Of a DNA stretch of 64,000 nucleotides, positions 3,788-39,797 are shown piece by piece. The DNA comes from Minisyncoccota bacterium (GTDB lineage Bacteria > Patescibacteriota > Minisyncoccia > JAHIHE01 > JAGLIN01), in NCBI GenBank assembly GCA_041661265.1, contig JBAZUT010000008.1, forward strand, positions 1,134 through 65,133. Reading direction: 5' to 3'. Each line of letters starts with the position of its first letter. Within the stretch, counting starts at the first letter, position 1. The position numbers were made by a program, and so were the translations under genes. The notes beneath the pieces are model-generated. The model saw only the letters and a list, made by a program, of their open reading frames with translations. It had not been told where the DNA came from and did not search any database.

Positions 3788-6100
3788 ATGAACATAAATT
3801 TAAAAGAAAAAATAAAAAATATGATGCATTCTTTCAACTTTGGAAAAATCAAAGAAAGCGAAGTAACCGGAAAAAAGGGAAAGCATATTTCAGTTTTGAA
3901 GATGCTTTTTGTTTTTGTGTCCATGCTGGCCTTGCCTGTTCATATGGCAAATGCGGTATGGTACAAACCATGGACATGGACACTGAGGGGCGTTGGAGAA
4001 GAAATACTGGAGGCAATTTTATTCGGTTTTAACTTGATCGTCTATAATCTCGGCAACTTTGCCCTGAATATAGCCGGACAGCTGGTCCATTTTGGAGCGT
4101 GGCTCGTCGATCTCATGATGGACCAGGGAATATACAAGGCGGTTTTGGTTGATTCCACAGCCATCAAGATCGGATGGGAAACTATCAGGGATTTTTGCAA
4201 CATGTTTTTCATTTTTTTCCTGCTCATCGTAGCATTCGCAACAGTACTTCGGATCAGCGAATATAGCGCGAAAGTCATACTTCCGAAGTTTCTGATCGCG
4301 ATCTTTATGATCAATTTCAGCATGGAGATCACGAAGCTCGTGATCGATTTCGGACAGGTTTTTATGTATGAGATCAGGGGCTGGATGGGTGATTTTTCCG
4401 GAACGACGGGAGGAGGAAGCAGCCTCACTTCGATCGTGGATTATTTCAATGAATATTTCAATGCAAGTGCAACGAACATTACGGCAGATTCGGCCATAGC
4501 TATTCTTTTTGCGGCCGCCTATTCTTTCATGCTCGGATTCACCTATATCATGATGGCGGGATTCCTTCTTATCCGACTGCTGATGTTCGCTGTTCTGATG
4601 ATCCTCTCTCCTTTTGCCTTTTTCGCGAATATTTTTCCGGGGACAAGGCACTATTCCAGCGATTGGTGGAGATCCATAATGAAATATTCTCTTTTCGGTC
4701 CGATATTCATTTTCTTCGTTTTCATATCCGCGACCATGGCCTTTGAACTTACAAACAATTACAATCCTGCGGCAGTCGTTCCTGCCGGATATGCGCAGAT
4801 CGAAGCCGTGAAAGGACTCATCCCGAAGCTTATTCCGAATGTTATCGCGCTGATGATGCTTTGGATGGCAATTCCGATCACTCAGAAACTGGGAATTGCC
4901 GGTTCGAGCAGACTGATCGGCGGAACGCTCGGTCTTGGCACTGTGGCCATGGCAAGCTATGGCGCGACGAAGCTTGCAGGAGGATGGGGAAAGAAAGCGG
5001 TTGAAGCACCGGCGAGCAGGTTACATGCTTACGGTATGGGCCAGAACGGAAGATACAAAGCAGCGGTGGATAAATTAAGCGGCGGATTGAAAAAACTGCC
5101 CCTTGGCACAGGAAGAATATTCATTCAATACGAAGCTGACAAGGCCGTACAGAAAAAGGAAGATGTTGCAAAGCATCAGAAGATCATGGAAAATCTTTCC
5201 GACAAAGATAAGAAATCATATGTCGATAGCTTCTCGATCGATCGAAAAGCAAAAGCAGATGCTCAGCAGGCTATGTTTAATTTGCTTGCAAAGGATTCCG
5301 GCAAGGGTTTGACGGATGCAAGATTGCAGAAGATGGGTTATGAGAAAGAAGTGAACGGACAGCAGGTGTTTGATAAGAAGAAATTTGAAAGCGATTATAA
5401 TCGGGCAAAGGCTTATGGACATGACACGGGCACTTTGGAGACCTACAGGCCTGATATGTTGACGAAAGATGATGACATAAGGGAAAAAGTCAAAAAAGTT
5501 GTCCAGGATGGAAACTATAAGAACATAAAGAGCGATGCTCTCGCAAATGAGACCGTTGCTAAGGAATTGGAAGGATTGATTGGCAAGAAAAAATATGATG
5601 AATTTATAAACAACAAGTCACAAGAAGAAAAATCAAGCCTTTCAAAGCATAAAGAGAAAAAATTAGCAGTGGAATATGCAACGCTATCTCCTGCTGATTT
5701 ACAAAAAAAACAGGTTGAGATTGCAAGCCTTGCAAGTCCAGATGATAAAGTGGAAGCCATGAAACAGATGACGGGAGTTGTAAATGGTCAAATTCAATAT
5801 GCGCCAAACATCAACAACAGGCCGGTTGTTAATTTGGACGTTGTAAATGAAGTCATGGATAGCATGTCCAAGGATCAATTCCTTGATTTGAATAAAGATT
5901 TCTTTGAGGAATATGGGCACATGGTTTCAGATGCTAATATTGACCATATTGCCAAATTTGGCGATACGGAACAGCTTAAATCAATGAAAGAAGCGATTGT
6001 AAGGGCACAAGCAGGAACTAATAATTTTTATCGCGGAAATCAGCTGGTGGATGCTCAAAAATTAACAGATAGACTGAATAAAATAAATAGTAAAATATAA
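3788..6100 (+). CDS. VirB6/TrbL-like type IV secretion polytopic membrane protein with a long charged C-terminal extension
   Basis: About 8 predicted TM helices in residues 30-400, then a ~370-aa K/D/E-rich hydrophilic tail. Sits in an operon with PrgI-like and VirB4 genes. An extended -10 (tgttataat) lies at ~3674-3682. Confidence 0.45.
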   Translation: MNINLKEKIKNMMHSFNFGKIKESEVTGKKGKHISVLKMLFVFVSMLALPVHMANAVWYKPWTWTLRGVGEEILEAILFGFNLIVYNLGNFALNIAGQLVHFGAWLVDLMMDQGIYKAVLVDSTAIKIGWETIRDFCNMFFIFFLLIVAFATVLRISEYSAKVILPKFLIAIFMINFSMEITKLVIDFGQVFMYEIRGWMGDFSGTTGGGSSLTSIVDYFNEYFNASATNITADSAIAILFAAAYSFMLGFTYIMMAGFLLIRLLMFAVLMILSPFAFFANIFPGTRHYSSDWWRSIMKYSLFGPIFIFFVFISATMAFELTNNYNPAAVVPAGYAQIEAVKGLIPKLIPNVIALMMLWMAIPITQKLGIAGSSRLIGGTLGLGTVAMASYGATKLAGGWGKKAVEAPASRLHAYGMGQNGRYKAAVDKLSGGLKKLPLGTGRIFIQYEADKAVQKKEDVAKHQKIMENLSDKDKKSYVDSFSIDRKAKADAQQAMFNLLAKDSGKGLTDARLQKMGYEKEVNGQQVFDKKKFESDYNRAKAYGHDTGTLETYRPDMLTKDDDIREKVKKVVQDGNYKNIKSDALANETVAKELEGLIGKKKYDEFINNKSQEEKSSLSKHKEKKLAVEYATLSPADLQKKQVEIASLASPDDKVEAMKQMTGVVNGQIQYAPNINNRPVVNLDVVNEVMDSMSKDQFLDLNKDFFEEYGHMVSDANIDHIAKFGDTEQLKSMKEAIVRAQAGTNNFYRGNQLVDAQKLTDRLNKINSKI

Positions 6101-6882
6101 TGAAAAAAGAAATTAAAGATAAAATCAAAAACACCCTTCCGGCTTTCGTGTTGGATAGTCTTTATAGTGATTATAGTTCTGAGGCTATCGAAAAAATAAT
6201 TGATGACTATATCCAGAATGAAGAAACAATGGATAATTTGAAAGATATAATCGGTCTTATAGTTTTGAAAGAAATAAGAATAGAAGAAGTTTTTGATTTC
6301 ATAAAAAAACTTGGGATTGATGATAAAAAGGCGAAAGACGTCACATTGATCGTTCTTTGCGAGATATTATTCCCGATGAAAGATTTTTTCCCTGGCATTG
6401 AAGATGTGATCGTCAAACTTGGCGGGGAGATCCCCAAAACGAATCCGATTAGCATTGATCAGCAGATGCTCAAAAGAGAGAAGGAAATGGAAGAAATGGA
6501 AGAGGCTGAAGAAAGAGAGCAAGAAGAAGCGGAAAAAGACATGATGGTGAGTCTTCCGATAGCTGAACTTGTAAAAGAATATCCTCAGGTTCAATCCCAG
6601 CGGATCGGATCGCAGGAGTCGATCATCGTTCAGGGAAGCGATGTGCCTATGAAACCGGAAATAAAATACTGGATGAAAGATTATATGGAAAAGGCGGGAT
6701 ATCGCATGCACTCGAATCTTGATCGGGTCAGTTATGTCTATCACGACAAGAACACAAAGAATATGAATGAGGAAGAAAGAAGGCAATTGGGTTTGGTTTT
6801 GAAATCCTTTGATGAAGAAATACCCCTCCCCTATTCCACCAAGCATGTCAAGATCGACTTTTCGAAAATTGCTGAAGAGTAA
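6100..6882 (+). CDS. Hypothetical cytoplasmic acidic protein, translationally coupled to the VirB6-like gene (taATGa overlap)
   Basis: ORF without TM segments. Contains an E-rich stretch REKEMEEMEEAEEREQEEAEKD. Confidence 0.4.
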   Translation: MKKEIKDKIKNTLPAFVLDSLYSDYSSEAIEKIIDDYIQNEETMDNLKDIIGLIVLKEIRIEEVFDFIKKLGIDDKKAKDVTLIVLCEILFPMKDFFPGIEDVIVKLGGEIPKTNPISIDQQMLKREKEMEEMEEAEEREQEEAEKDMMVSLPIAELVKEYPQVQSQRIGSQESIIVQGSDVPMKPEIKYWMKDYMEKAGYRMHSNLDRVSYVYHDKNTKNMNEEERRQLGLVLKSFDEEIPLPYSTKHVKIDFSKIAEE

Positions 6883-6958
6883 AATATATTTATAAGATAC
6901 AAGGACACAAGATACAATAACCAGACAATAATCAACAACCAAATTTCAATAATCAATT

Positions 6959-7324
6959 ATGCACGATTTTGATTTAGAAAGAAGAACAACTGAATTCGCG
7001 AAAAGAGTAGTTCGTTTATGCAGATCATTACCGAAAGATTCAATTAACAATAGATTAAGCGGACAGGTTGTCGGTTCGGCTGGTTCCGTCGGCGCAAATT
7101 ATCGTGAAGCAAATGATGCTTTGGGGAAAAAGGACTTTATTCTCAGGCTTAAAATAGCCAGAAAAGAAGCAAAGGAAACGATGCATTGGCTGGAACTGGT
7201 TGAAGAAGCGAATCCTGAGCTGAAACCAAGAATGGCAGAATTAAAACAAGAAGCAACTGAATTGAAGAATATTCTATCAGCAATAATCGGCAAAACGGTA
7301 AAAAATAACAATCCTGTTCGATAA
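6959..7324 (+). CDS. Four-helix-bundle protein (23S rRNA intervening-sequence protein / DGR Avd-like family)
   Basis: Family motif GSAGSVGANYREA. Flanked by short inverted repeats (6890-6935 vs 7340-7375). Confidence 0.6.
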   Translation: MHDFDLERRTTEFAKRVVRLCRSLPKDSINNRLSGQVVGSAGSVGANYREANDALGKKDFILRLKIARKEAKETMHWLELVEEANPELKPRMAELKQEATELKNILSAIIGKTVKNNNPVR

Positions 7325-7430
7325 TTGATCATTGAGATTTGTTTGTATCCTTGTAGCTTGGTTATTGTATCTTTACTTTTGAAGACATAAGCAATGAATT
7401 TAACGATATAACAATTTAACAATAGAATTT

Positions 7431-7883
7431 ATGCAGTACGGCGTACCGCAATTTATCGACGTTGAAGACAAGATAGTAGGTCCTTTTACCGGCAAACAAA
7501 CTCTGTATATGATGATCGGAGGAGGATTTTTGATCCTGATCTTCTCGTTCTTCACTCTGGGATTTTTTCTCGTCGCCGTTGTCATCATTCTTCCGCTTAC
7601 GCTGGTTTTCGCTTTCTATAAGCCGAAAGGCATCACCGTTGCCCAATATCTCTCGAATTTCATGAAGTTTTTCTCATCGAATCGTCTTTATGTCTGGAGG
7701 AGGGAGAATGAAGGAAGCTTTTTCAAAACAGTACAGAAGAAGAAAAAGGCTACCGTGGAAGTCGAGGCTAAGACTGTCACAAGAAGCAAGATCCGCGAAC
7801 TTGCCTGGGTTCTCGACACCAGCACTGCGGTGAGCGTTCCCTATGAGGCAAAAGAGAGGCCGGACGAAGCGGTGAGAAGATGA
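7431..7883 (+). CDS. PrgI family (VirB3-like) type IV secretion protein
   Basis: MQYGVPQFIDVEDKIVGPFTGKQTLYMM followed by two TM helices. This is the characteristic PrgI N-terminus and topology. Confidence 0.55.
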   Translation: MQYGVPQFIDVEDKIVGPFTGKQTLYMMIGGGFLILIFSFFTLGFFLVAVVIILPLTLVFAFYKPKGITVAQYLSNFMKFFSSNRLYVWRRENEGSFFKTVQKKKKATVEVEAKTVTRSKIRELAWVLDTSTAVSVPYEAKERPDEAVRR

Positions 7884-7892
7884 TTTTTGGCA

Positions 7893-8344
7893 ACTGAAAA
7901 ATGAAAAGCTAAAAATGAAAAACGACAGAGAAAAATTTAAAAATGAATTTAAGGCGCGAATCTACAACTTCATATTGAATCTGATAAAATTTATCGACCA
8001 CTTACCTTCCGACAGAGCTACGGATATAATCGCCAAACAGCTCCTCAGAAGCGGCACAAGCATCGGCGCAAACTATATCGAAGCGCAAGCGGCAAGCTCA
8101 AAGAAGGACTTTACTAACTTTTTCCACTATTCCTTAAAATCGGCCAATGAAAGCAAGTTCTGGATCGCGATCTTAAGAGATAGCAAAAAGGCTGGAAAAG
8201 AAGAGGCTGAAGCTTTATTGAAAGAGCTTATAGAAATTTCAAACATACTGGGCTCAAGCATTATCACGCTGAAGAACAAAAGATAGTCCATCTTATATAT
8301 AATATTTTTTCGTTTTTCATTTTAAATTTTAAATTTGAAATATG
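7893..8344. repeat. Direct repeat copy 1 (~450 bp) carrying a four-helix-bundle gene, bounded by 17-bp terminal inverted repeats TAAAAATGAAAAACGA
   Basis: Near-identical to 9019..9480. TIRs at 7909-7925 and 8310-8326. The copy ends in the ATG (atgtcaa) of the downstream gene. Confidence 0.8.
7915..8286 (+). CDS. Four-helix-bundle protein (23S rRNA IVS protein / Avd-like family), copy A
   Basis: LLRSGTSIGANYIEAQAASSKKDF...SKFWIAILRD. 99% identical to 9047..9418. Confidence 0.7.
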   Translation: MKNDREKFKNEFKARIYNFILNLIKFIDHLPSDRATDIIAKQLLRSGTSIGANYIEAQAASSKKDFTNFFHYSLKSANESKFWIAILRDSKKAGKEEAEALLKELIEISNILGSSIITLKNKR

Positions 8345-9016
8345 TCAACTCCTGAAAAAAAACCGGTTAAGGGTCTCAGCACCCAAAGATATCTTGAAAT
8401 AGCCGAGATAAAGGATAGCGTTGTCGTGATGAAAAACGGAAACTTGAGGGCTGTTCTCATGGTGTCCTCGATAAATTTCGCCTTGAAATCCATCGATGAG
8501 CAGGATGCGATCATCTATCATTTCCAAAGTTTTCTGAATTCTTTGGATTTTTCCATCCAGATCCTCATCAACTCAAGGAAGCTCAATATTGAGAATTATC
8601 TGGACGTTCTGAGAGAAACGGAGAAAAGGCAGACGAATGAGCTCCTGCGAATGCAGACCGCAAGCTATATCGAATACATCCAGGGGCTGGTCAAAATGGC
8701 GAACATTGTCAGCAAGACTTTTTATATCGTTGTTCCCTTCTCCGCCGCTGAAACGAAAGAAGGCGGGCTTTCAAAACTGAAAGCGTCTTCAACCGCGACA
8801 CAGATCATTTCCAGCAGGGAAGTTTTTGAAAAATATAGAGATCAGCTTTTTCAGAGGGTCGATCATATAATCGAGAATCTGAGCGGAACTGGGCTTCGAA
8901 TGACAATGCTTAACACGCAGGAACTTATTGAATTGTATTATAATCTCTATAACCCCGATCTCGCGGACAAGAAAGGGCTGGCCGACATCGAAGAACTTGA
9001 CCTTGCGGTGGAGTAA
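8342..9016 (+). CDS. VirB4 N-terminal-domain-like protein (CagE/TrbE/VirB4 N-domain-like), encoded separately from the ATPase
   Basis: Segment EIKDSVVVMKNGNLRAVLMVSSINFALKSIDEQDAIIYHFQSFLNSL resembles VirB4/TrbE N-domains. No Walker motifs. Assignment is tentative. Confidence 0.35.
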   Translation: MSTPEKKPVKGLSTQRYLEIAEIKDSVVVMKNGNLRAVLMVSSINFALKSIDEQDAIIYHFQSFLNSLDFSIQILINSRKLNIENYLDVLRETEKRQTNELLRMQTASYIEYIQGLVKMANIVSKTFYIVVPFSAAETKEGGLSKLKASSTATQIISSREVFEKYRDQLFQRVDHIIENLSGTGLRMTMLNTQELIELYYNLYNPDLADKKGLADIEELDLAVE

Positions 9017-9018
9017 AC

Positions 9019-9480
9019 TTACGTATTGAAAAATGAAAAGCTAAAAATGAAAAACGACAGAGAAAAATTTAAAAATGAATTTAAGGCGCGAATCTACAAC
9101 TTCATATTGAATCTGATAAAATTCATAGATAACCTGCCCTCCGACAGAGCTACGGATATAATCGCCAAACAGCTCCTCAGAAGCGGCACAAGCATCGGCG
9201 CAAACTATATCGAAGCACAAGCGGCAAGCTCAAAGAAGGACTTTACTAACTTTTTCCACTATTCCTTAAAATCGGCCAATGAAAGCAAGTTCTGGATCGC
9301 GATCTTAAGAGATAGCAAAAAGGCTGGAAAAGAAGAGGCTGAAGCTTTATTGAAAGAGCTTATAGAAATTTCAAACATACTGGGCTCAAGCATTATCACG
9401 CTGAAGAACAAAAGATAGTCCATCTTATATATAATATTTTTTCGTTTTTCATTTTAAATTTTAAATTTGAAATATGTCAA
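9019..9480. repeat. Direct repeat copy 2 (~450 bp) carrying a four-helix-bundle gene, TIR-bounded
   Basis: Near-identical to 7893..8344. TIRs at 9041-9057 and 9442-9458. Confidence 0.8.
9047..9418 (+). CDS. Four-helix-bundle protein (23S rRNA IVS protein / Avd-like family), copy B
   Basis: ORF 9026 uses a TTG start; the ATG at 9047 gives the same 123-aa protein as copy A (one H to N difference). Confidence 0.7.
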   Translation: MKNDREKFKNEFKARIYNFILNLIKFIDNLPSDRATDIIAKQLLRSGTSIGANYIEAQAASSKKDFTNFFHYSLKSANESKFWIAILRDSKKAGKEEAEALLKELIEISNILGSSIITLKNKR

Positions 9481-11333
9481 TTTTCAGCAGTTTGCTGCCA
9501 TCCGGAAATAAGGCAAAAGAAAATAATTCCGCTTCGCCGAAGAAAGGAACCGCAACAGGCGAATCGAGCGCTGTGATCGCTTCGGAGAGGATATACAAGC
9601 AGGGACTTACGACCGTAAAGGACATCATCGCTCCCGCCGCTTTCAGGATCGAAGCGGATTATGTGATGATAAACCGGAAAATGGCGGCGACGTTCTTCGT
9701 TTATGCCTATCCGAGATATTTGCAGACGAATTGGTTCTCCCCGATCGTCAATCTTGACGCGACATTCGACATTGCGATGTTCATCCATCCGCAGAGCAGC
9801 GCGGAGATATTGAGGCATCTTCTCAAGGTTGTAACGCAGATCCAGTCGCAGATCTCCATGAACGAGGAAAGAGGAATGGTCAGGGATCCGATCCTCGAGA
9901 CCGCATATCAGGACGTTGAGAATCTCCGAGATGACCTCCAGCAGGGTATCGAGCATTTTTTCCAGTTCGGGCTCTATATGACAATCTATGGCGATACGAA
10001 AGACGAACTGATGAAGGTTGAGACGCAGATAGAGGCGATCCTTGAGGCAAAGCTCATCTATGTGAAGCCGGCGATAATGCAAATGGAGGAGGCTTTCAAT
10101 TCGACGCTTCCGCTGGCGAGCGACAAGCTCATGATCGTGAACAATATGAACACTTCTCCCCTTTCCACGACTTTCCCGTTCGTTTCGAGCGATCTCACTT
10201 CGAATCAGGGCATTCTCTATGGGATAAACAGGCACAACAACAGTCTGGTGCTTTTTGACAGGTTTTCGATGGAAAATGCGAACATGGTCATTTTCGCAAA
10301 GTCCGGCGCAGGAAAAAGCTATACGGTCAAATTGGAAATACTGCGAAGTTTGATGGTTGAAACGGATGTCATTGTCATAGACCCTGAAGATGAATATAAG
10401 CATCTTTGCGAGACCGTCGGCGGCACTTTCATGAGGATCTCTCTTTCGGCGAAGCATCACATTAATCCTTTTGATCTTCCGACTGCGCTTGAGGATGAAG
10501 CTCCCGCGGACGTGCTTCGTACGGCGATCGCCAATGTCTCCGGACTTCTCAAGGTTATGCTCGGAAAGCTTTCCGCAGAGGAAGACTCGATCTTGGACAA
10601 GGCCATTGCGGAAACCTATGCCATAAAAGACATCACTCCGGAAGCGGAATTCGCGAAGCTTGAACCTCCGACAATGACAGATCTGCAGATGGTGCTTGAG
10701 AATATGAGCGGCGCAGAAAGCCTCTCGACCAGGATCAAGAAATACACTGAAGGAACTTTTGCAGGATTTTTGAACCACAGGACGAATGTCAGCGTGGACA
10801 AAGGCCTCGTCGTTTTCAACATCAGGGACATGGAAGAAGAGCTCCGTCCGGTCGCCATGTATCTCATTCTGCACTATATCTGGACGCTGATCAGGTCCGA
10901 AAGGAAAAGAAGGATGCTTGTGGTCGATGAGGCGTGGTGGATGATGCAGCACGAAGACGCGGCCTCATTTCTCTTTTCGATCGCAAAACGATGCAGGAAA
11001 TATTTCTTGGGCCTCACGACGATCACCCAGGACGTCACCGACTTCATGGGTTCGAGATATGGAAAGCCGATCGTCACCAATTCCTCGATCCAGCTTCTCC
11101 TGAAGCAGTCCCCTGCCGCCATCAAGGTCATCGTGGACACATTCTATCTTACGGATGAGGAGAAGTTCTTGCTATTGGAAAGCAATGTCGGAGAAGGGAT
11201 ATTCTTTGCAGGGGCAAAGCGCGCCGCGATCAAAGTGGTCGCTTCATATTCCGAGGATCAGATCATAACTTCCGATCCCGCCCAGCTCCTTGAGATCGAA
11301 AAGGCAAAGAAAGAACTGGAAGATGTGGCGTAA
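9474..11333 (+). CDS. virB4: VirB4/TraE/PrgJ-type type IV secretion ATPase
   Basis: Gram-positive-type N-terminus KDIIAPAAFRIEADYV...YPRYLQTNWFSPIVNLD. Walker A is FAKSGAGKSY, Walker B is MLVVDEAWWMM. Confidence 0.85.
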   Translation: MSIFSSLLPSGNKAKENNSASPKKGTATGESSAVIASERIYKQGLTTVKDIIAPAAFRIEADYVMINRKMAATFFVYAYPRYLQTNWFSPIVNLDATFDIAMFIHPQSSAEILRHLLKVVTQIQSQISMNEERGMVRDPILETAYQDVENLRDDLQQGIEHFFQFGLYMTIYGDTKDELMKVETQIEAILEAKLIYVKPAIMQMEEAFNSTLPLASDKLMIVNNMNTSPLSTTFPFVSSDLTSNQGILYGINRHNNSLVLFDRFSMENANMVIFAKSGAGKSYTVKLEILRSLMVETDVIVIDPEDEYKHLCETVGGTFMRISLSAKHHINPFDLPTALEDEAPADVLRTAIANVSGLLKVMLGKLSAEEDSILDKAIAETYAIKDITPEAEFAKLEPPTMTDLQMVLENMSGAESLSTRIKKYTEGTFAGFLNHRTNVSVDKGLVVFNIRDMEEELRPVAMYLILHYIWTLIRSERKRRMLVVDEAWWMMQHEDAASFLFSIAKRCRKYFLGLTTITQDVTDFMGSRYGKPIVTNSSIQLLLKQSPAAIKVIVDTFYLTDEEKFLLLESNVGEGIFFAGAKRAAIKVVASYSEDQIITSDPAQLLEIEKAKKELEDVA

Positions 11334-11396: not shown

Positions 11397-11437
11397 GTTG
11401 TCATCCTGATCCGCCGATTGGCGGAGAAGGATCCCGT
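11397..11437 (+). repeat. Box A repeat (gttgtcatcctgaTCCGCCgattGGCGGAgaaggatcccgt), upstream flank of a GIY-YIG mini-element
   Basis: Identical copy at 13184-13224. Contains a perfect 6-bp stem hairpin. Confidence 0.7.
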
Positions 11438-11503
11438 CAATTATTTCGTATCGCTATAAATTTCACAATTCATTGTTAATATAGGATTTCAAGATGATAC
11501 AAT

Positions 11504-11782
11504 ATGAATAGATATTTTGTATATATAGCTTCAAACAGCAGAAATACAGTTCTATATACCGGTATCACAAATGACATAAATCGAAGAATGTTTCAGCACA
11601 AAAACAAGCTGGTAAAAGGTTTCACAGAAAAATATAATGTTGACAAGTTAGTATATTGCGAAGAGTTTAATTCGCCAGGAGAAGCAATCTCCGCCGAAAA
11701 GAAAATTAAAGGATGGACAAGAAAGAAAAAGATAGATTTGATCAAAAGCATTAATCCCGAATTCGCAGACTTGTTGATATAA
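11504..11782 (+). CDS. GIY-YIG nuclease family protein (small UPF0213/YhbQ-like)
   Basis: YFVYIASNSRNTVLYTGITNDINRRMFQHKN...EEFNSPGEAISAEKKIKGWTRKKK is a canonical GIY...YTG motif. Confidence 0.8.
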   Translation: MNRYFVYIASNSRNTVLYTGITNDINRRMFQHKNKLVKGFTEKYNVDKLVYCEEFNSPGEAISAEKKIKGWTRKKKIDLIKSINPEFADLLI

Positions 11783-11784
11783 AA

Positions 11785-11825
11785 CCGGGATTCTTCACTC
11801 CGCTCCGCTGCATTCAGAATGACAT
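11785..11825 (+). repeat. Box B repeat (ccgggattcttcac.ccgctccgct.cattcagaatgacat), downstream flank of a GIY-YIG mini-element
   Basis: Copies at 13724-13764 (direct) and 13259-13303 (inverted). Confidence 0.7.
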
Positions 11826-12059: not shown

Positions 12060-13031
12060 ATGGAAAGTGGAAGAATAAAAAGTGGTGTATCCAGAATTGC
12101 CAAAAATGAAAGTGCTAATCGAGTAGCGAATGCAACTCCTTTTGTTGGTGGAGCTAAAAGAATGGCAGAGAGTGCAGCGGGAAAAACATTGGCCGGAGAG
12201 AAATTATCAGGCAGGGATAGGTGGAAACATGGCGCTGGAGGAGCAGCTGATCTGGCTTTGGATTTTACCGGAATTGGAGAGGTTGAGAAAGGCGCAAAAA
12301 TGGCATATATTGGAAAAAAGATAGCAAGCGGTCTGGAAGAAAATACAAAAAAGGAAGCCACAAGAGAAATTAAAGACCAAGTCATTAAAAGAGGCATTGC
12401 GGCTGATAATTATCGTATCAAAAGCCAAGCCGGCAGAAATGAGGAAGCGCAAAGGATAAAAAGCGAAGCTCAAAGAGAAGCCGAGAGGCATATGAATCAT
12501 GAATTCCAAAAATCGGCAAGAATGAGCGGAGTGAAAGGGAGAGTGGCGTCAAAAATCGCCAGCCGGGGCGTATCGGAAGCAGCCTATCAAATTGCCTCCA
12601 GGTTGAGCGAAAAGGCGAAACAAGGGGGGCATTGGGCGGTGATCGTTTTTATTGTAACTTTACTGATAGCTATAATAGTTGACGCGTTAGATATTGTAGG
12701 CACTCTTCTTATTGAAACGATCCTAGGCTGGCTTATTATTTTTCTGATTAACACACTTCTTTCATTGATCATAAATATTTTTTGGATGTTGCTTGCAGGT
12801 GGCGGACATAGCAAGTTTTTTTGGAAGATTCTTGTCAGGTATATCATATTTGGATTGATACTTGATTCCATCCCAATTATAGAATTATTTCCATTTACGG
12901 TTTTTATGGTATGCTGGAACTGGTATGATTATAGCAAAGAAAGAAGTGAAGCGAAGCAAGAATTGAAAAGATTTTCAAAAGTTTATGCAAAAACGGGAGA
13001 AATAAAAGGACAATCCATGAAATATGCTTAG
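12060..13031 (+). CDS. Hypothetical membrane protein (charged N-terminal half, 4 TM helices in C-terminal half) bracketed by the two GIY-YIG elements
   Basis: ORF with GHWAVIVFIVTLLIAIIVDALDIVGTLLIETILGWLIIFLINTLLSLIINIFWMLLAGG. No recognisable family. Confidence 0.4.
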   Translation: MESGRIKSGVSRIAKNESANRVANATPFVGGAKRMAESAAGKTLAGEKLSGRDRWKHGAGGAADLALDFTGIGEVEKGAKMAYIGKKIASGLEENTKKEATREIKDQVIKRGIAADNYRIKSQAGRNEEAQRIKSEAQREAERHMNHEFQKSARMSGVKGRVASKIASRGVSEAAYQIASRLSEKAKQGGHWAVIVFIVTLLIAIIVDALDIVGTLLIETILGWLIIFLINTLLSLIINIFWMLLAGGGHSKFFWKILVRYIIFGLILDSIPIIELFPFTVFMVCWNWYDYSKERSEAKQELKRFSKVYAKTGEIKGQSMKYA

Positions 13032-13183: not shown

Positions 13184-13379
13184 GTTGTCATCCTGATCCG
13201 CCGATTGGCGGAGAAGGATCCCGTATTTAAATATGGATATCACGTTCAAAAAAAATGGACTCATTGTCATTCTGAACAGAGCGGAGCGAAGTGAAGAATC
13301 CCAGTAGAAAAAAATAGCGCCTTATGTAACGGGACTCTTCGACCCGCTTCGCCGAAGGTTGACAGCGAGGCGAGCGGGC
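13184..13379. repeat. Composite repeat block: box A (13184-13224), inverted box B (13259-13303), inverted box C (13341-13379)
   Basis: All three dispersed-repeat families co-occur here, upstream of the second GIY-YIG gene. Confidence 0.65.
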
Positions 13380-13442
13380 TCAGAGTGACAAGTATTGCAT
13401 AGAAGGGATATTTGCTTTTACAATACCTCAAGACAATATAGT

Positions 13443-13721
13443 ATGAATAAATACTATGTTTATATAGCTTCGAACAGCAGAAATACAGTTTTATATACCG
13501 GCATTACACATAACATAAATCGAAGAATGTTCGAACATAAAAACAAATTAGTTAAAGGTTTTACAGAAAAATATAATGTTGATAAATTAGTGTATTGTGA
13601 AGAATTTAATTCTCCGGGAGAAGCAATTGCCGCCGAAAAGAAAATTAAAGGATGGACAAGAAAGAAAAAGATAGATTTGATCGAAGGGATTAATCCCGAA
13701 TTTGCAGACTTGTTGATATAA
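13443..13721 (+). CDS. GIY-YIG nuclease family protein, second copy (~92% aa identity to 11504..11782)
   Basis: MNKYYVYIASNSRNTVLYTGITHNINRRMFEHKN... ORF 13395 has an upstream extension; the likely start is the ATG at 13443. Confidence 0.8.
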   Translation: MNKYYVYIASNSRNTVLYTGITHNINRRMFEHKNKLVKGFTEKYNVDKLVYCEEFNSPGEAIAAEKKIKGWTRKKKIDLIEGINPEFADLLI

Positions 13722-13852
13722 AACCGGGATTCTTCATTTCGCTTTGCTTCATTCAGAATGACATTATTGTTTAAGCAAATGAAAATTAGGGTTTCATTCA
13801 AAATCCAAAATTGGAAATTAAAAATTAACTTATAATATTAACATCTAAAACT

Positions 13853-14851
13853 ATGTTTATCAGAAAACGCACCTTGCTCCTGCTTCTCCTTGTTGCATCT
13901 GCCACATTTGCTTACCCTGCTTTTGCCCAATATACCCCAATGGTCAGGATTCCCGGGCTCACCGCCGCGGGAAGCATAAATCTTTCAATGTATCTGGTGG
14001 GATTATATAATTTTATGGTCAGTATTGTGGGAATAGTTGCTGTCATGATGATGATCGTGGGAGGCATGAGATATATAACTGCTGCGGGAAGTTCAACGGC
14101 GATTAGCGATGCAAAAGATATTATCTCAAATGCCGTAGCCGGTCTCGTTATTGCCATTTTTGCCTGGATCATTGTTGCCGCAATAAATCCCGACGTCTTG
14201 TTCATAAAGAAACCCGGATCGGGATTCAAAAATGCTTCATATTTATCTTGTACGAAGCAATATACGGCCGCGATATGCAAGTGCAATGATGACGTGGGTT
14301 TGGGAGTTTTTGCATCTCCGACCGCCTGCAATGATGCATGCAAAGCCGGAAATCATTGCGGCGGTTTGGTGAATAGTTGTATCAGGGATGGAGTGAATGA
14401 AACGACCAGTCCGAAATTTAATACAGCTCCGAATAACGGAAAATGTTTATGTGCTAATGGAGTGGATGTTGTGCCTATACCGCCAGCTACATGTCAAGCG
14501 ACTTGCGCTATAGCAAATTGTATAAAGGCTGATGCAAGAATTGGAAATACAGGAATTACAGGTTTTGTCTCAGGAGTGGTAGATCAAAAAAGGACAACTA
14601 TATACATAAAAAATCCTTGCACGGATTCTTTGGCATTTGATGCTTACAAAACATTTGCTGTAAATCCCTATACGTGCAGTTGGGATTTTGAAAGCGACGG
14701 CACACCTGACAATCCCTCGTGTTTTACAGGATTTTGTCCGGTAAGTGGCGTCTTTATCGCTGGAACTTATACAGCAACGCTTACAGTGACTGACTCTGTT
14801 ACTGGAGCAAGTTCTGCGGACACTGTTATTTATGAAGCAATATATCCATAA
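13853..14851 (+). CDS. VirB2/TrbC-like pilin core with a ~210-aa Cys-rich C-terminal extension (PKD-like tail)
   Basis: Signal peptide, then a pilin-like core (INLSMYLVGLYNFMVSIVGIVAVMMMIVGGMRYITAAGSS...AGLVIAIFAWIIVAAI). Downstream are at least 14 Cys residues and a TGFCPVSGVFIAGTYTATLTVTDSVTG segment. Confidence 0.5.
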   Translation: MFIRKRTLLLLLLVASATFAYPAFAQYTPMVRIPGLTAAGSINLSMYLVGLYNFMVSIVGIVAVMMMIVGGMRYITAAGSSTAISDAKDIISNAVAGLVIAIFAWIIVAAINPDVLFIKKPGSGFKNASYLSCTKQYTAAICKCNDDVGLGVFASPTACNDACKAGNHCGGLVNSCIRDGVNETTSPKFNTAPNNGKCLCANGVDVVPIPPATCQATCAIANCIKADARIGNTGITGFVSGVVDQKRTTIYIKNPCTDSLAFDAYKTFAVNPYTCSWDFESDGTPDNPSCFTGFCPVSGVFIAGTYTATLTVTDSVTGASSADTVIYEAIYP

Positions 14852-16758: not shown

Positions 16759-17397
16759 TTATTGATAGAACCTTATATTGATATTTACTCTATAGAGTTC
16801 ATCATTAGCGCTTTTGTCTGCCATCCAGACGGTGGATTTTCTCTGTGGGCCCTTCACTCCTTCTACAGAACCGCCTCTATTCCATTTGCCGCCATTTCCA
16901 GACTCAACTGTGAGTTTGACCACACCTTGCAGATCACGGAGATATGAATTAACTGTCAGTATCTTATTGTCTCCGGAAATTTCCGCTTTGAAATTATCCA
17001 GGACTAGATTGTCATCAACTGCAATTGCGATGTTTTGCAGTTTATTTTTTGGGACAGTAAAATAAACCTCCACTACACCATTGCTTCTGAAACTGGCATA
17101 TTTTTGAACATACGCTACATTATTTTCGTAGCTTCTATTGTTGTATGCACCGACCAGGGGCTCTTTTACGGGGAGGCCTTTGACAGTAATTCCGTTGAGA
17201 GTATTTCCTTCAATTTTTTTCGAATCATCTAAACTGTTGGAATCTGTGATTCCAGTATTTTCGGAAATTGGCTGTTTGATGGCCGTTTCTGCTACTTTCG
17301 GCGCTATTGTCTCCGGACCTTTGTCCGACACGCATCCCGAGATCAACAAAGCTCCCGCAAGCAGAAATACTGCCAATATTTTCAATTTTATTCTCAT
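16759..17397 (-). CDS. Lipoprotein, paralog 1 (variable surface lipoprotein)
   Basis: MRIKLKILAVFLLAGALLISGC has a lipobox. ORF 16759..17442 starts at an upstream TTG/ATG; the likely start is at 17397. Confidence 0.5.
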   Translation of the reverse strand: MRIKLKILAVFLLAGALLISGCVSDKGPETIAPKVAETAIKQPISENTGITDSNSLDDSKKIEGNTLNGITVKGLPVKEPLVGAYNNRSYENNVAYVQKYASFRSNGVVEVYFTVPKNKLQNIAIAVDDNLVLDNFKAEISGDNKILTVNSYLRDLQGVVKLTVESGNGGKWNRGGSVEGVKGPQRKSTVWMADKSANDELYRVNINIRFYQ

Positions 17398-17523
17398 TCT
17401 TTCACGTCCTTTTTGTTTTGTTTTCCATATTTCAAGGATCAATTTGTCTTATCCTCAATGCCACCAGCATAAAGTTTTTTTTGAGATTTGTCAAGAATTG
17501 AGGCATCTATTGTCCCATTACTA

Positions 17524-17797
17524 AAAAGTCCCCTCTCGAGAGGGGCAGGGGTGTGTGAGTTGGGAAGCGCGGCTAGGTCGCTTTGAGTTAATTTGATAAA
17601 CAAAAAAACACAAATCTCTCTGAGGTTCAAGGTCTGCACCTTGTCCACAAGGTCAGATCCTTGAAGAACCGGCGAAGACATCGAACAACTTCATTTATTA
17701 TCGGAGGATCCGACTTCTTTGAGGGGGTGCGGACCTCTTTTGTTCTCGGACTTCCCTGTTCCTTCCACACAAGAGGAAGAGGCCAGGTGGATTTGGA
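17524..17797. repeat. Structured dispersed repeat, copy 1 (~270 nt; begins with the perfect palindrome CCCCTCTCGAGAGGGG)
   Basis: Near-identical core to 20218-20490 and 21054-21262. Confidence 0.75.
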
Positions 17798-17818: not shown

Positions 17819-18661
17819 TCAGACCAGATATTTTTTCATTATTTCTTTGTAATTTTTGCAGAAATCAGTCACGAAAGATTGGTCGGGAAAGAAATTCTGA
17901 AGATCATATGCGAGCTTTCTTTCATCGACCTCCTTTTCGATTTTGTTTTTCAGGACTTGTTTCAGTTCATTCTCGTCTTTGATGGAGAAAGCCTTTTCAA
18001 GGACAGCAAAGTCAGGACTGATGCCTTTGCTGAGATACCAGAATAGGTCATAGAAGTCGCGTCCCTTTATGTCGATAACATTGTTTTTTCCCTTGAACCA
18101 TTTTCGTCCCAGTATCGCCATGATCTTTCCGGTCATCAGAAATTTTAGGGTGTAATTTTTGGCAAGAAAATTGAAGCCGAATGAAGAGACTGGGGAAAGC
18201 TCGGTTTCAAATACTTCGAATTGGCTGATCTCCGGCTCGATTTTGACATAGAGAAAATCGCTTTTTTCTCCATAAATAAGACCAAGATCTTTCAGGATCG
18301 GGAATTTGAGATAGAGCCTGTTTTTTCCCTGGACCCGGAAGGAAGGAACTATAAGGAAATTGTTTTCAAAATATGCAGAAAGTGCCGTGCCCATTTTTTC
18401 CAGATCCAATGTCCGGAAATCAGATTCTTCGAGGTCAAAGTCCAGGTCTTCGGAAAGTCGCGACAAGCCATAGCAAATGCGAAGGCACGATCCGCCGGTG
18501 AAGATGAAGTTTTTATATTCTTTGCTGTTATATATATAGCTCAGAACTGGAAATTGCAGGACCTCTTTAAGGAAGTTTGCGATCACAAAATCAGGAAGCC
18601 CGGCTCTCTTTTTCTCCTGCACCAGGGTTTTCATGGTCTCTTTAAGCATAATATTGTTCAT
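17819..18661 (-). CDS. abiEii: AbiEii/AbiGii family nucleotidyltransferase toxin (type IV toxin-antitoxin / abortive infection)
   Basis: FIFTGGSCLRICYGLSRLSEDLDFDL matches the DUF1814 GGtaL...R.SeDlDf motif. Confidence 0.7.
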   Translation of the reverse strand: MNNIMLKETMKTLVQEKKRAGLPDFVIANFLKEVLQFPVLSYIYNSKEYKNFIFTGGSCLRICYGLSRLSEDLDFDLEESDFRTLDLEKMGTALSAYFENNFLIVPSFRVQGKNRLYLKFPILKDLGLIYGEKSDFLYVKIEPEISQFEVFETELSPVSSFGFNFLAKNYTLKFLMTGKIMAILGRKWFKGKNNVIDIKGRDFYDLFWYLSKGISPDFAVLEKAFSIKDENELKQVLKNKIEKEVDERKLAYDLQNFFPDQSFVTDFCKNYKEIMKKYLV

Positions 18662-19280
18662 TAATGAGTTTAAATAGTGTATTCATGCGTTTGTTGTTGC
18701 ATATTTTTATGTATTCTTCCATTTTTTTGATGTCGGAAGCGGAAATATTTTCCCAGTTGAGGCGCAGATCTTCCAGCGCTTCTCGGTTTATTTCACGCTT
18801 GCTCAAAAAGCGAAGATAGAGAAAATCAAACAGAGCTTTTGCTTTTTCGGCTTCAAGAACGGGCGCGCCTTGAAAATATTTGACGGAATATCCGCAAAAA
18901 AGCTTCGGGCTTATTGAGTAATAGCGGAAGCTTCCGAGCTTGTTCACAATTTCCCTTCCTGTTTTTACGGTCATTGAAGTCAGGGCGTTGGCCGGTTCGC
19001 TCAGGATCTGATATTTGGAAAGCGTATATTCCATTGAGAGATAGGATGGCATCACCATTTGATTGGCGATGTATTCGAGATAGGAGTTCTTGTCTCCTTC
19101 CATGCGGAATCGGTCGCTTAGCACGTATAGGCCGTTTTTCAGGCCAATGAGTTTCCCGTTTTTAAGCCAATATTTGATGTTGGCATTCAGCGATTCAGGG
19201 TCGCTTTCAAGCGATCGAAGCGTATTTTTGCTGAAAACAAGGAACTTTTGGCTTATTTTCTCAAAATCATTATAGTTCAT
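18642..19280 (-). CDS. abiEi: Putative AbiEi-like antitoxin / transcriptional regulator
   Basis: Lies immediately upstream of and overlaps the AbiEii gene by 20 nt. Size is about 210 aa. Assigned mainly by operon context. Confidence 0.45.
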   Translation of the reverse strand: MNYNDFEKISQKFLVFSKNTLRSLESDPESLNANIKYWLKNGKLIGLKNGLYVLSDRFRMEGDKNSYLEYIANQMVMPSYLSMEYTLSKYQILSEPANALTSMTVKTGREIVNKLGSFRYYSISPKLFCGYSVKYFQGAPVLEAEKAKALFDFLYLRFLSKREINREALEDLRLNWENISASDIKKMEEYIKICNNKRMNTLFKLINEQYYA

Positions 19281-19442: not shown

Positions 19443-20012
19443 TTAAGTCGTCTTTATTAGTTTTTCCGGATGTCTTGCAGTTGGATTTGGTTGAGCGGGC
19501 GGAGCATTAACTTTTGTAATTTCAACGCTCCATTCCCATTCTTTTATGGCATCGATCCCTGGGCAATTCCCTCCGCCTGCTTCTGTTATACATTTTTCCA
19601 TCATAACTGTTTTAGAACTCTTTTTGTTTCTTAGTTTAAACTGATATTCCAGATAGAACCTGGCATTATCTGGTTTCAACTCAGAAACAACAGTAATAGC
19701 TTTGCCAGCGTATACTTTGATTTTAAGATCTCCGAGATCTAATGTTTGTGGTTGCGTCGAGTCTTCAAAGAAATCATACCAGTTATCTGACTTAAAAACT
19801 TCTATTTTTGATTGCGCATCGCTGTTCTTTGGCGTTTCAGTAACTCCCGGACCGACGTTTCCGGAGTTGCCCGAACTTCCCGAACTGCCAGGACTTGCCT
19901 CACTAATTGCTACTTCTGTTACTTTTGGCGATATTGTTCCCGGGTCTTTATCCGACACGCATCCCGAGATCAACAAAGCTCCCGCAAGCAGAAATATTGC
20001 CAATATTTTCAT
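19443..20012 (-). CDS. Lipoprotein, paralog 2 (Gly/Ser-rich linker, divergent mature domain)
   Basis: MKILAIFLLAGALLISGC has a lipobox. Same upstream leader as 16759 paralog. Contains a GSSGSSGNSGN linker. Confidence 0.5.
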   Translation of the reverse strand: MKILAIFLLAGALLISGCVSDKDPGTISPKVTEVAISEASPGSSGSSGNSGNVGPGVTETPKNSDAQSKIEVFKSDNWYDFFEDSTQPQTLDLGDLKIKVYAGKAITVVSELKPDNARFYLEYQFKLRNKKSSKTVMMEKCITEAGGGNCPGIDAIKEWEWSVEITKVNAPPAQPNPTARHPEKLIKTT

Positions 20013-20217
20013 TCTTATTTTCACTTTTTCACATCCTTTTTGTTTTGTTTTCCATATTTTAAGGATCAATTTGTCTTATCCTCAATGCGAACATCATAAA
20101 GTGTTTTCTGGGTTTTGCAAACACTATCGGCTGGAAAGTGGAGGGTAGAATGTGGAAAGTGGCAAATTGTTGAAGAATCTTTTGATATTGCTCCATGACC
20201 ATATTGTTCTATTATTA

Positions 20218-20490
20218 ATAATCCCCTCTTGAGAGGGGCAGGGGTGTGTGAGTTGGGAAGCGCGGCTAGGTCGCTTTGAGTTAATTTGATAAACAAAAGA
20301 ACGCAAATCTCTCTCAGGTTCAAGGTCTGCACCTTGTCCACAAGATCAGATCCTTGAAGAACCGGCGAAGACATCGAACAACTTCATTAATTATCGGAGG
20401 ATCCGACCTCCTGCTGGAGGTGCGGACCTCCTTCGTCCCCGGATCTCCCCGCTCTTTCTGCACAAGATGAGGAGACCTGGTGGATTTGAG
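20218..20490. repeat. Structured dispersed repeat, copy 2
   Basis: Sequence identity to copy 1 and copy 3. Confidence 0.75.
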
Positions 20491-20984: not shown

Positions 20985-21053
20985 AGTTTATCGTTTTAGA
21001 AATATGCCACACTTCCGGTTGAGGGGTGGTTTTTTGTTTTGTTGTGACATCTC

Positions 21054-21262
21054 ATCCCTCCTTTATGAAAAGGAGGGTTAGGGTGGATTTGAATTAATCC
21101 GGTAAGCAAAAGAACGCAAATCTCTCTCAGGTTCAAGGTCTGCACCTTGTCCACAAGATCAGATCCTTGAAGAACCGGCGAAGACATCGAACAACTTCAT
21201 TAATTATCGGAGGATCCGATCTCCTGCTGGAGGTGCGGACCTCCTTCGTCCTCGGACCCCTC
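21054..21262. repeat. Structured dispersed repeat, copy 3 (alternative head hairpin CCCTCCTTT-atgaaa-AGGAGGG)
   Basis: Core identical to copies 1 and 2. The head hairpin differs in sequence but keeps its structure. Confidence 0.7.
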
Positions 21263-21380
21263 CATCCACTTTGTCCAAGACAGACAGACTATGTGGGCTT
21301 GGATCGATCTGAAGATAAGGGAAATTGACACTCGTTTTTTGTGGAGTATAATAGAAATATAATTTGAATAGGTTATTGCA

Positions 21381-22987: not shown

Positions 22988-23839
22988 ATGAATTTTGACA
23001 GAGATTACGGAAATGAAAGAAAGGGAAAACCTTCGAAAATAGTGATTTCGGCTATAATAGCAATGATCTTGGTCGGGCTGTATTTATTAGTGCCTGCGAC
23101 AAGCAAAGCAATATATGCACCCCCCAGAGAGAACATCACAGTCGTAACCAATCTGCCATATCCTCCTTTTGAGGACTTGGCAGGCGGTGAATTCACCGGT
23201 TTGGATATCGATATTGCATATAAATTCGGGGACAAATACAACACAAGAGTGATTGTGACGGACGTTCCTGAATTTGATGACATATTCCTGGCATTGAAAG
23301 ACGGAAAGGCGGATATGGCTATTTCGGCCATTACGATCAGTTCCGGCAATTCCAGCAGAAGCAATTTATCCGATTTTTCAATTGGATATTACAATGCTTC
23401 ACAGGCAGTGCTAGCTATGGAAAATGGAAAGTTCAAGATCGCAAACGAATTATTCGCGGGCGATTTCAAGGGCATGAGGGTGGGATATCAGGGATCCACC
23501 ACAAATGAAGGCTGGGCAGCGGCAAATCTGTTCGGAAAAGTAGATCTTGCCGGCAATGTATCCTTCGGCGATGTCGACAGCGGATTACAGATATTGAGAT
23601 CCGGCGATATTGACGGGATCATTTTGGATGAACCGGCCGCACGCGCTCTTGAAAAGAAAAATCCCGGAATGGTGGTTGCTGGAGTTATCAACAACACTCA
23701 AGAGGAATATGGGATAGCCGTGAAGAAAGGCGATCCGAAAAAACTGCTCCCGAAGATCAACGAGCTCATCAAAGAGCTGAAAGGGAACGGGGAGTATGAG
23801 AAATTGATCAAGAAGCACTTCGGAGGCGGTCAGAAATGA
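22988..23839 (+). CDS. ABC transporter substrate-binding protein, family 3 (polar amino-acid type)
   Basis: Signal anchor, then DIDIAYKFGDKYNTRVIVTDVPEFDDIFLALKDGKADMAISAITIS...ILDEPAA. Confidence 0.65.
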   Translation: MNFDRDYGNERKGKPSKIVISAIIAMILVGLYLLVPATSKAIYAPPRENITVVTNLPYPPFEDLAGGEFTGLDIDIAYKFGDKYNTRVIVTDVPEFDDIFLALKDGKADMAISAITISSGNSSRSNLSDFSIGYYNASQAVLAMENGKFKIANELFAGDFKGMRVGYQGSTTNEGWAAANLFGKVDLAGNVSFGDVDSGLQILRSGDIDGIILDEPAARALEKKNPGMVVAGVINNTQEEYGIAVKKGDPKKLLPKINELIKELKGNGEYEKLIKKHFGGGQK

Positions 23840-24867: not shown

Positions 24868-24986
24868 AGGCAGTGAACGCACTGTCCTTTTTTTATGGAT
24901 AAAAAGTCCCCTCTCGAGAGGGGCAGGGGTGTGTGGGTTGGGAAGCGAGGCCAGACCTTGGAAATAACGGAAAATCATTGGCAGAG

Positions 24987-25073
24987 CGGAGAGGGTGGGA
25001 TTTGAACCCACGGTCCCGATGAAGAGACGCTGGTTTTCGAAACCAGTACGTTAAACCGCTCTGTCACCTCTCC
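24987..25073 (-). tRNA. tRNA-Ser (anticodon CGA), class II with long variable arm, no encoded CCA
   Basis: Hand-folded: acceptor stem GGAGAGG/CCTCTCC, anticodon stem-loop CTGGT-TTCGAAA-ACCAG, T-arm GTGGG-TTCAAAT-CCCAC. Confidence 0.75.
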
Positions 25074-39782: not shown

Positions 39783-39797
39783 CGCAGGGCCTGCGTT

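Follow-up and report, generated by a model that had tools for sequence, protein, structure and literature searches.

Inverted-repeat-bounded cassettes in the spacers of a Patescibacteria type IV secretion operon: probable selfish elements resembling rRNA intervening sequences

Why should a secretion operon carry a small gene of one and the same family at several of its junctions? The question is raised by a contig of a Minisyncoccota bacterium (JBAZUT010000008.1), of which we analyzed a 64-kb stretch, hereafter called the window. A plus-strand gene cluster, defined by a map of open reading frames (ORFs) and by hidden Markov model (HMM) scans, encodes a type IV secretion system (T4SS) in which the gene order is VirB6-like protein, acidic protein, four-helix-bundle (4HB) gene, PrgI, 4HB gene, a TrsD-like protein of 224 aa, 4HB gene and VirB4. 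An earlier interpretation made from the DNA letters and ORF translations (the sequence-only reading) had given the same order, taking it for a T4SS architecture not known before and suspecting that the 4HB genes are lineage-specific insertions. Our analysis indicates that the 4HB proteins are probably not components of the secretion machine, and that their genes belong instead to selfish cassettes, bounded by inverted repeats and similar to the intervening sequences (IVSs) of rRNA genes, which, together with two GIY-YIG cassettes of like build, have recently colonized five of the six junctions of a conserved T4SS operon.

Three 4HB cassettes and their turnover in related operons

All three small ORFs fall in the family to which they had been assigned from the sequence. 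PF05635 was matched by 4HB1, 4HB2 and 4HB3 at 64.7, 69.7 and 70.0 bits (cut-off 33.8), and TIGR02436 by 4HB1 and 4HB2, the two proteins scanned with it, at 84.4 and 86.7 bits (cut-off 24). Among solved structures, PDB 2RLD, deposited with five chains, comes nearest, and 4HB2 aligns to it with an E-value of 1.8e-17. Each gene is the only ORF of a cassette of approximately 450-480 bp, which is closed by an imperfect inverted repeat of 35-60 nt overlapping the start and stop codons. The three cassettes are as follows.

6894-7375, plus strand: cassette 1, with the 4HB1 ORF at 6959-7324 and arms at 6894-6960 and 7321-7375
7895-8341, plus strand: cassette 2, with the 4HB2 ORF at 7915-8286 and arms at 7899-7942 and 8293-8336 (44 nt)
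9027-9473, plus strand: cassette 3, with the 4HB3 ORF at 9047-9418 and arms at 9031-9074 and 9425-9468; a recent copy of cassette 2

In cassette 1 the arms are complementary over segments of 26 nt (88%), 15 nt (100%) and 17 nt (88%), and folding of the RNA from 6885 to 7385 predicted a closing stem of about 60 nt, with a z-score of -3.25 and none of 100 shuffled sequences as stable. Cassettes 2 and 3 have a perfect 14-nt arm core lying over the start codon, which in cassette 2 reads AAAATGAAAAACGA in one arm and TCGTTTTTCATTTT in the other; the closing stem of cassette 2 was predicted in both the minimum free energy (MFE) and the centroid fold. The start codon of 4HB3 is most likely the ATG at 9047, the counterpart of that at 7915, rather than the TTG at 9026.

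One cassette has been copied into a neighboring spacer. The DNA at 7895-8341 and 9027-9473 is 97-100% identical; the copied unit runs from 10-12 nt past the upstream stop codon up to the start codon of the following gene. At the site of the third copy, the entire ancestral spacer of 132 bp has been replaced, and no target-site duplication is visible there. Between the 4HB2 and 4HB3 ORFs there are 8 nucleotide differences, 7 of them synonymous. Seven of the eight, six of these being synonymous, are clustered within 16 nt (7992-8007 versus 9124-9139), a pattern resembling a short patch of conversion from a third copy at another place in the genome. An independent metagenome contig (L100), in which a TrsD gene with 100% identity is followed directly by a 4HB gene, argues against mis-assembly of cassette 3. 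Two cassette copies with 95% identity, located 3.9 kb apart in neighboring spacers, were also found in a related locus (L082).

Comparison with relatives was based on 80 genome loci recovered via VirB4, with gene order judged only where a locus was long enough. Among these, the order PrgI-TrsD-VirB4 is constant, and the spacers are mostly 1-20 bp or the genes overlap. Enlarged spacers of 300-640 bp occur in approximately one quarter of the loci, chiefly in the clade closest to the window, and contain a PF05635/TIGR02436 gene, a GxxExxY gene or ORF-less remnants, all such genes being on the operon strand. The 4HB genes are absent from about 85% of the homologous operons, including those of close relatives. 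The nearest relative (L081), whose VirB4 and TrsD are 94% and 90% identical to those of the window, has a plain 132-bp spacer at the TrsD/VirB4 site, where the window has 4HB3, and a 4HB gene with 22% identity to 4HB2 at the PrgI/TrsD site. In another locus (L172) VirB4 is 55% identical, yet a 4HB2-type gene with 62% identity is located at the TrsD/VirB4 site. These patterns mean that occupancy is sporadic, that alleles are swapped at fixed spacers, and that the history of the cassettes departs from that of their hosts. Routine interleaving was not seen in the relatives, and the synteny comparison upholds the earlier suspicion on this point: the 4HB genes are lineage-specific, sporadic insertions with fast turnover at fixed spacers.

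The closing helix, other cassettes of the same build and their junctions

The 4HB2 subfamily comprises proteins of 123 aa that are 60-85% identical and widespread in the phylum. Its pN of 0.25 versus a pS of 0.83, with synonymous sites saturated, indicates that the ORF is kept by purifying selection. The closing helix of this subfamily is conserved with compensatory changes. We aligned 46 cassettes of the 4HB2 type and counted pairs on a 35-bp closing helix that had been drawn manually according to the complementarity of the alignment columns. Paired cells amounted to 90.1% versus 87.0% in shuffled alignments, cells changed on both sides to 59 versus 33.9, and the covariation score to 0.116 versus 0.074, with none of 500 shuffles reaching the observed value in any of the three measures. 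When the 3′ partner was slid by 1-3 columns, 39-68% of cells paired. Compensatory changes were found at pairs 43/485 (AU 19, CG 18), 50/478 (AU 13, CG 13, GU 9) and 55/473 (UA 21, CG 11, UG 5), the last of which joins the third position of an Asn codon to the 3′ arm. In a tally of the listed pair types, G.U pairs exceed A.C pairs on the sense strand by approximately 109 to 24, two columns accounting for most of them.

Inverted repeats flank every cassette examined, whether of the 4HB1, 4HB2, GxxExxY or GIY-YIG type, and the arm sequences are unrelated between subfamilies; the 4HB cassettes of seven related loci (L001, L004, L028, L037, L050, L060 and L081) are bounded by mutually unrelated arms. 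Two cassettes with GIY-YIG genes lie downstream of VirB4 in the window. The sequence-only reading, right about the interleaved 4HB genes, had missed these two cassettes as well as the inverted repeats and the near-identity of copies 2 and 3.

11397-11824, plus strand: GIY-YIG cassette 1, with the ORF at 11504-11782 (PF01541, 65.6 bits) and repeat elements at 11397-11437 and 11784-11824
13265-13763, plus strand: GIY-YIG cassette 2, with the ORF at 13443-13721 and arms at 13265-13305 and 13723-13763 (41 nt, 83% complementary)

The GIY-YIG proteins, of approximately 92 aa, consist of the catalytic domain only, with no recognizable DNA-binding module. In the nearest relative, no GIY-YIG gene was called in the spacer between VirB4 and the next gene. 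GIY-YIG cassette 2 has the termini TGTCATTCTGA...TCAGAATGACA. The same termini, TGTCATT...AATGACA, bound ORF-less inverted-repeat elements that fill the enlarged TrsD/VirB4 spacer in two related loci (L007 9591-9858 and L009 9605-9854), and these elements look like non-autonomous or decayed cassettes. The GxxExxY genes of relatives match TIGR04256 (PD-(D/E)XK-type). In the GxxExxY cassettes (L020 8235-8290, L028 8750-8800 and L060 2873-2925) translation of the left arm extends the ORF at its N terminus, for example by ...ANIRMHTNYTN..., so that the repeat constrains or creates coding sequence.

All three 4HB genes and both GIY-YIG genes of the window are located within the T4SS cluster, where they occupy five of the six junctions, as against none of approximately 40 other co-directional junctions. 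One junction was lost in the automatic gene call, and Fisher's test was therefore run on 5/5 versus 0/40, with p = 8e-7; computed by hand for 5/6 versus 0/40, p is about 4e-6. Elsewhere in Patescibacteria, homologs of 4HB2 are located between FtsW and YceG, on both sides of dprA and between pilin genes. The interleaving is therefore not specific to the T4SS, though the cassettes are enriched at T4SS genes: 6 of 80 metagenome cassettes adjoin them, which we estimate to be several-fold above expectation for a cluster of 7-9 genes in a genome of about 700-1000 genes, a size that was estimated rather than measured.

Two further settings were observed. In each of two different metagenome contigs (L115 2882-3481 and L137 2900-3497), the interval separating tRNA-Gly(ccc) from tRNA-Thr(cgt) is exactly filled by a 4HB2-type cassette, with all three elements on the same strand. 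Another such cassette (L124 3001-3575) is immediately upstream of an L10 ribosomal protein leader (Rfam RF00557, 48.2 bits) and is thus inside a ribosomal-protein operon.

The cassettes also fit their neighbors closely. The upstream neighbor is co-oriented in 86 of 92 cassettes and the downstream neighbor in 74 of 81, the baseline for adjacent genes being 72%. The most frequent distances, which are approximate, are 20-29 nt from the upstream stop codon to the 4HB ATG and 49-65 nt from the 4HB stop codon to the next start. They correspond to the two arm lengths, so that the base of the helix stands flush between the stop and start codons of the neighbors.

Proposed mechanism and rival explanations

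Selfish cassettes of this build would have no room for a promoter or terminator of their own and would be carried along in the RNA transcribed from the operon. Pairing of the arms in this RNA would loop the cassette out and hide the 4HB start codon. Looping would bring the upstream stop and the downstream start within approximately 15-20 nt of each other, near the ancestral spacers of 1-20 nt, and at this effective spacing the coupled expression of the T4SS genes would survive. By analogy with rRNA IVSs, the long A-U helix is a plausible substrate of RNase III and is probably cut, and a possible role of the 4HB protein is binding to the helix or to nucleic acid, as in Avd. Spread would proceed via recombination or gene conversion into homologous or neighboring spacers; for the GIY-YIG and PD-(D/E)XK cassettes it would involve homing-like cleavage, comparable to that of the free-standing homing endonuclease genes of T4-like phages (PMC2988022). 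A broader proposal, which we offer tentatively, is that Patescibacteria hold a single class of operon-spacer cassettes, with a 4HB, GIY-YIG or PD-(D/E)XK ORF in a closing helix. Such cassettes would reside in the spacers of well-transcribed conserved operons (rRNA, tRNA, ribosomal-protein and T4SS), be looped or cut out of the RNA so that host genes stay expressed, and spread by homing-like gene conversion. If this is so, rRNA IVSs are the best-known habitat of a far broader type of mobile element.

Several points weigh against selfish cassettes that act through the transcript. That the cassettes are co-transcribed, cut by RNase III and bridged by translational coupling is an inference on our part. 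Over its full length, cassette 2 shows no gain in stability relative to its shuffles (z = 0.05), and RNAalifold applied to the full alignment of 46 cassettes returned an empty consensus structure. The helix is A-U rich, with 87% pairing arising from column composition alone, and it was fitted on the same alignment on which it was counted, which biases the slid-partner control. The arm hairpins are equally stable in sense and antisense (-22.34 versus -22.37 kcal/mol), and the repeat could thus act in DNA rather than in RNA. Gene calls in the metagenome loci were mechanical, which makes the distance statistics approximate, and Rfam searches of 20 loci of the 4HB2 subfamily detected no rRNA, only an L10 leader. 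To our knowledge, 4HB proteins have neither nuclease nor recombinase activity with which to bring about their own mobility.

The stability of the hairpins on both strands would also suit terminal inverted repeats of DNA elements resembling miniature inverted-repeat transposable elements (MITEs). Under that explanation the repeats act in DNA, mobilization depends on a transposase or recombinase encoded elsewhere, and the 4HB, GIY-YIG and GxxExxY genes travel as passengers; the existence of ORF-less elements with the same TGTCATTCTGA termini and the shared build around three unrelated ORF families agree with it, and concerted change of the arms is also expected if one protein recognizes both ends. 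We nevertheless regard it as unlikely. No target-site duplication is visible, and the third copy took the place of the whole 132-bp spacer instead of inserting into it. The arms are wholly different between subfamilies, and the left arm runs approximately 27 nt into the ORF. Cut-and-paste elements do not typically show such strict co-orientation with host genes or sit so flush between stop and start codons, the excess of G.U over A.C pairs, mostly from two columns, is on the sense strand, and no transposase was found among the scanned window ORFs of at least 150 aa. Less probable again, in our estimation, is domestication, in which the helices would be RNA-processing or stability sites setting the ratios of T4SS proteins and the 4HB proteins would be RNA-binding regulators of the operon. 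Purifying selection on the ORFs, conservation of the helix and enrichment at T4SS genes are compatible with such a role, as is the position of the T4SS in this phylum as a highly expressed locus near the replication origin (PMC12102498). However, most related genomes run the operon cassette-free with spacers of 1-20 bp, the occupants of a spacer are swapped between unrelated families and between alleles of 22% identity, and the same cassettes occur in unrelated operons and between tRNAs.

The alternation of 4HB and T4SS genes on one strand, and the recurrence of 4HB genes at T4SS spacers in several genomes, could also suggest a new T4SS variant to which the 4HB proteins belong as genuine accessory subunits or chaperones. 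We consider this very improbable, given that about 85% of the homologous operons manage without 4HB genes, that the same spacers hold GxxExxY genes or ORF-less remnants in other loci, that close homologs (60-85% identical) are found in unrelated operons, and that published surveys of Patescibacteria T4SSs do not list 4HB proteins (PMC12102498). A connection with diversity-generating retroelements (DGRs), touched on in the sequence-only reading through the homology to Avd, has the least to recommend it, and we give hardly any credence to the 4HB genes being Avd accessory genes or DGR relics. PF05635 is homologous to Avd (PMC10053308), and the 4HB protein of the nearest relative has a precomputed match to bAvd (PF22296). 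For the window 4HB proteins, in contrast, PF05635 alone, and not the bAvd model, was reported at E <= 0.01. No reverse transcriptase was found among the scanned window ORFs of at least 150 aa, the window contains no template/variable repeat pair, and each of the three copies lies within its own inverted-repeat cassette. The window 4HB proteins have no PHROG match either, and a phage link was rejected; a link to defense systems was likewise rejected, with no PADLOC match to the 4HB and GIY-YIG proteins.

The host operon and comparison with known systems

The host is a Paceibacteria-like Patescibacterium, an ultra-small bacterium, and the T4SS is the published chromosomal, relaxase-less system of Patescibacteria. 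What had been read as a novel architecture is thus a known system interrupted by cassettes that also occur between FtsW and YceG, around dprA, and at pilin genes, an L10 leader and tRNAs. The genes of the cluster, other than those in cassettes, are as follows.

3788-6100, plus strand: VirB6-like polytopic membrane protein, 770 aa, host T4SS gene (TrbL/VirB6 PF04610, E 8e-4, 19.6 bits, below the 25.9 cut-off)
6100-6882, plus strand: acidic protein, 260 aa, conserved host gene in the close clade (no Pfam or NCBIfam match)
7431-7883, plus strand: PrgI/VirB3-like protein, host T4SS gene (PF12666, 39.2 bits, cut-off 27)
8342-9016, plus strand: TrsD-like protein, 224 aa, resembling the VirB4 N-terminal domain, host T4SS gene (sub-threshold NCBIfam matches)
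9474-11333, plus strand: VirB4 ATPase, 619 aa, complete, host T4SS gene (P-loop_TraG 93 bits, AAA_10, DUF87)
12060-13031, plus strand: membrane protein, 323 aa, host cluster gene (weak pre-toxin TG match, PF14449, E 8e-4, below cut-off)
13853-14851, plus strand: VirB2-type T4SS pilin domain protein, 332 aa, host T4SS gene (PF18895 T4SS_pilin, 34.2 bits, cut-off 26.6)

The scores secure the PrgI-like and VirB4 assignments of the sequence-only reading, whereas the VirB6-like and VirB4-N-like ORFs show a family resemblance through sub-threshold matches. For the 224-aa protein the models concerned are VirB4_plasma, in its N-terminal region (E 1e-11), and TrsD/TraD (E 6.6e-8). Its 90%-identical homolog in the nearest relative has a precomputed PF26593 TraC-like match, TrsD homologs (42-78% identical) directly precede VirB4 in related loci, and TrsD is named among the T4SS components of Patescibacteria (PMC12102498). 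PrgI is located directly 5′ of TrsD-VirB4 in every sufficiently long related locus. VirB6-like homologs (23-48% identity) occupy the equivalent position in related loci, and in 11 of the 14 closest loci (L001-L014) a homolog of the acidic protein (47-57% identical) separates VirB6 from PrgI. Across Patescibacteria, VirB4 homologs of approximately 611 aa are 57-94% identical to that of the window, which indicates that the VirB4 here is complete and not split.

Two other origins of the arrangement were considered and rejected. The 224-aa and 619-aa ORFs are not one VirB4 gene split by 4HB3, since the homologs of about 611 aa are complete and TrsD is a separate conserved gene in all relatives. 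A recent tandem duplication of a 4HB gene together with a VirB4 N-terminal domain was dismissed because a tblastn search with the 224-aa protein gave no second match in the window, while cassettes 2 and 3 are 97-100% identical.

Beyond 11333, the cluster extends to 14851 with a GIY-YIG gene, the 323-aa membrane protein, a second GIY-YIG gene and the VirB2-type pilin. Homologs of the 323-aa protein (28-35% identical) were found between VirB4 and the pilin gene in four loci (L004, L005, L010 and L014), and pilin homologs lie 3′ of VirB4 in many related loci. A ksgA-like gene adjoins the cluster. As had been noted from the sequence, neither a relaxase nor a coupling protein (VirD4) was detected among the window ORFs of at least 150 aa in Pfam scans, in which ORFs 25754-28171 and 23836-24867 had no match of any kind. 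The suggestion of a non-conjugative system directed at host interaction agrees with the published T4SS, for which a shift of function away from conjugation is proposed (PMC12102498).

Other features of the window include non-coding repeats of approximately 270 nt, 69-95% identical and with the common motif TAAAAAGTCCCCTCTCGAGAGGGGCAGGGGTGTGTGAGTTGGGAAGCGCGGCTAG, at 17250-17795, 19877-20488, 21030-21301 and 24900-24954. One copy abuts tRNA-Ser (24986-25073), and such repeats flank an AbiEii toxin (PF08843; PADLOC AbiEii, E 5e-35) and AbiEi antitoxin (E 1e-42) at 17819-19280 on the minus strand. A gene for a XerC/D-type tyrosine recombinase (Phage_integrase, 145 bits) at 31925-32860 adjoins tRNA-Leu(tag) at 33042-33124. 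Three tandem paralogs of PMT_2 / Glyco_transf_22 membrane glycosyltransferases occupy 38085-43210, and 300 nt that are 100% identical between 39841-40140 and 41559-41858 suggest recent gene conversion. Three tandem, diverged repeats of approximately 400 nt (62-83% identical) lie at 58950-59807. The window contains no rRNA gene, Rfam detecting two tRNAs only.

As a T4SS, the cluster follows the published chromosomal, MPF-FATA-related system of Patescibacteria in its gene set of VirB4, TrsD, PrgI/VirB3, VirB6 (here a sub-threshold match) and VirB2-like pilins, in lacking a relaxase and in its ksgA neighborhood (PMC12102498); TrsD and PrgI/VirB3 lie directly upstream of VirB4, as in the MPF-FATA-like T4SSs of the phylum. 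Small genes between the components go unmentioned in the published description, and no PF05635 or GIY-YIG entry was found in the text-format supplementary files of that study (PMC12102498). In annotating reduced genomes of this phylum, it would be wrong to count small genes amid T4SS components (the components being reported as essential to epibiotic growth) among the machine's parts, and enlarged spacers in the core operons of Patescibacteria are likely to be footprints of cassettes. With the Avd proteins of DGRs, the 4HB proteins share a homologous four-helix-bundle fold family (PMC10053308), whereas the genes described here are accompanied in the window by neither reverse transcriptase nor template/variable repeat.

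The free-standing homing endonuclease genes of T4-like phages (seg and mob) are similar in that they, too, are small and selfish, are inserted between conserved genes of the same direction, vary in presence among close relatives, differ in occupant at one and the same junction and involve the GIY-YIG family (PMC2988022). They differ in that 4HB proteins have no nuclease domain, the GIY-YIG proteins here are of only about 92 aa, and the host is a cellular chromosome. We know of no bounding inverted repeats as a feature of these phage genes.

The closest likeness in build is to the 23S rRNA IVSs of Coxiella burnetii and Leptospira and to the rRNA insertions in Candidate Phyla Radiation (CPR) bacteria: a unit of approximately 430-480 nt in which one PF05635 ORF of about 120 aa is enclosed by terminal inverted repeats forming a long closing stem, distributed sporadically, apparently spreading horizontally and carried (presumably so in the cassettes) within the host transcript (PMC4990558, PMC11270868). 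The Coxiella IVS measures 428 nt, has a 28-bp stem of terminal repeats around a PF05635-type ORF and is cut by RNase III (PMC4990558), and the CPR insertions encode 23S_rRNA_IVP and GIY-YIG proteins (PMC11270868). In all three 4HB cassettes of the window, complementary termini likewise form a long closing stem. Unlike IVSs, the cassettes are located in spacers of protein genes, and in other genomes of tRNAs, rather than in a helix of 16S or 23S rRNA; purifying selection acts on their ORFs, whereas for the Coxiella protein a probable lack of production in vivo is reported; and GIY-YIG or GxxExxY genes take the place of the 4HB gene in other cassettes built in this way. Our literature search found no earlier description of such cassettes outside rRNA genes, although it covered few subscription journals and so does not prove novelty. 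How rRNA IVSs move and what their 4HB protein does are questions that have stood since the 1990s, and a recent copy within one genome, an allele swap between sister genomes and a helix that covaries across 46 cassettes make them testable.

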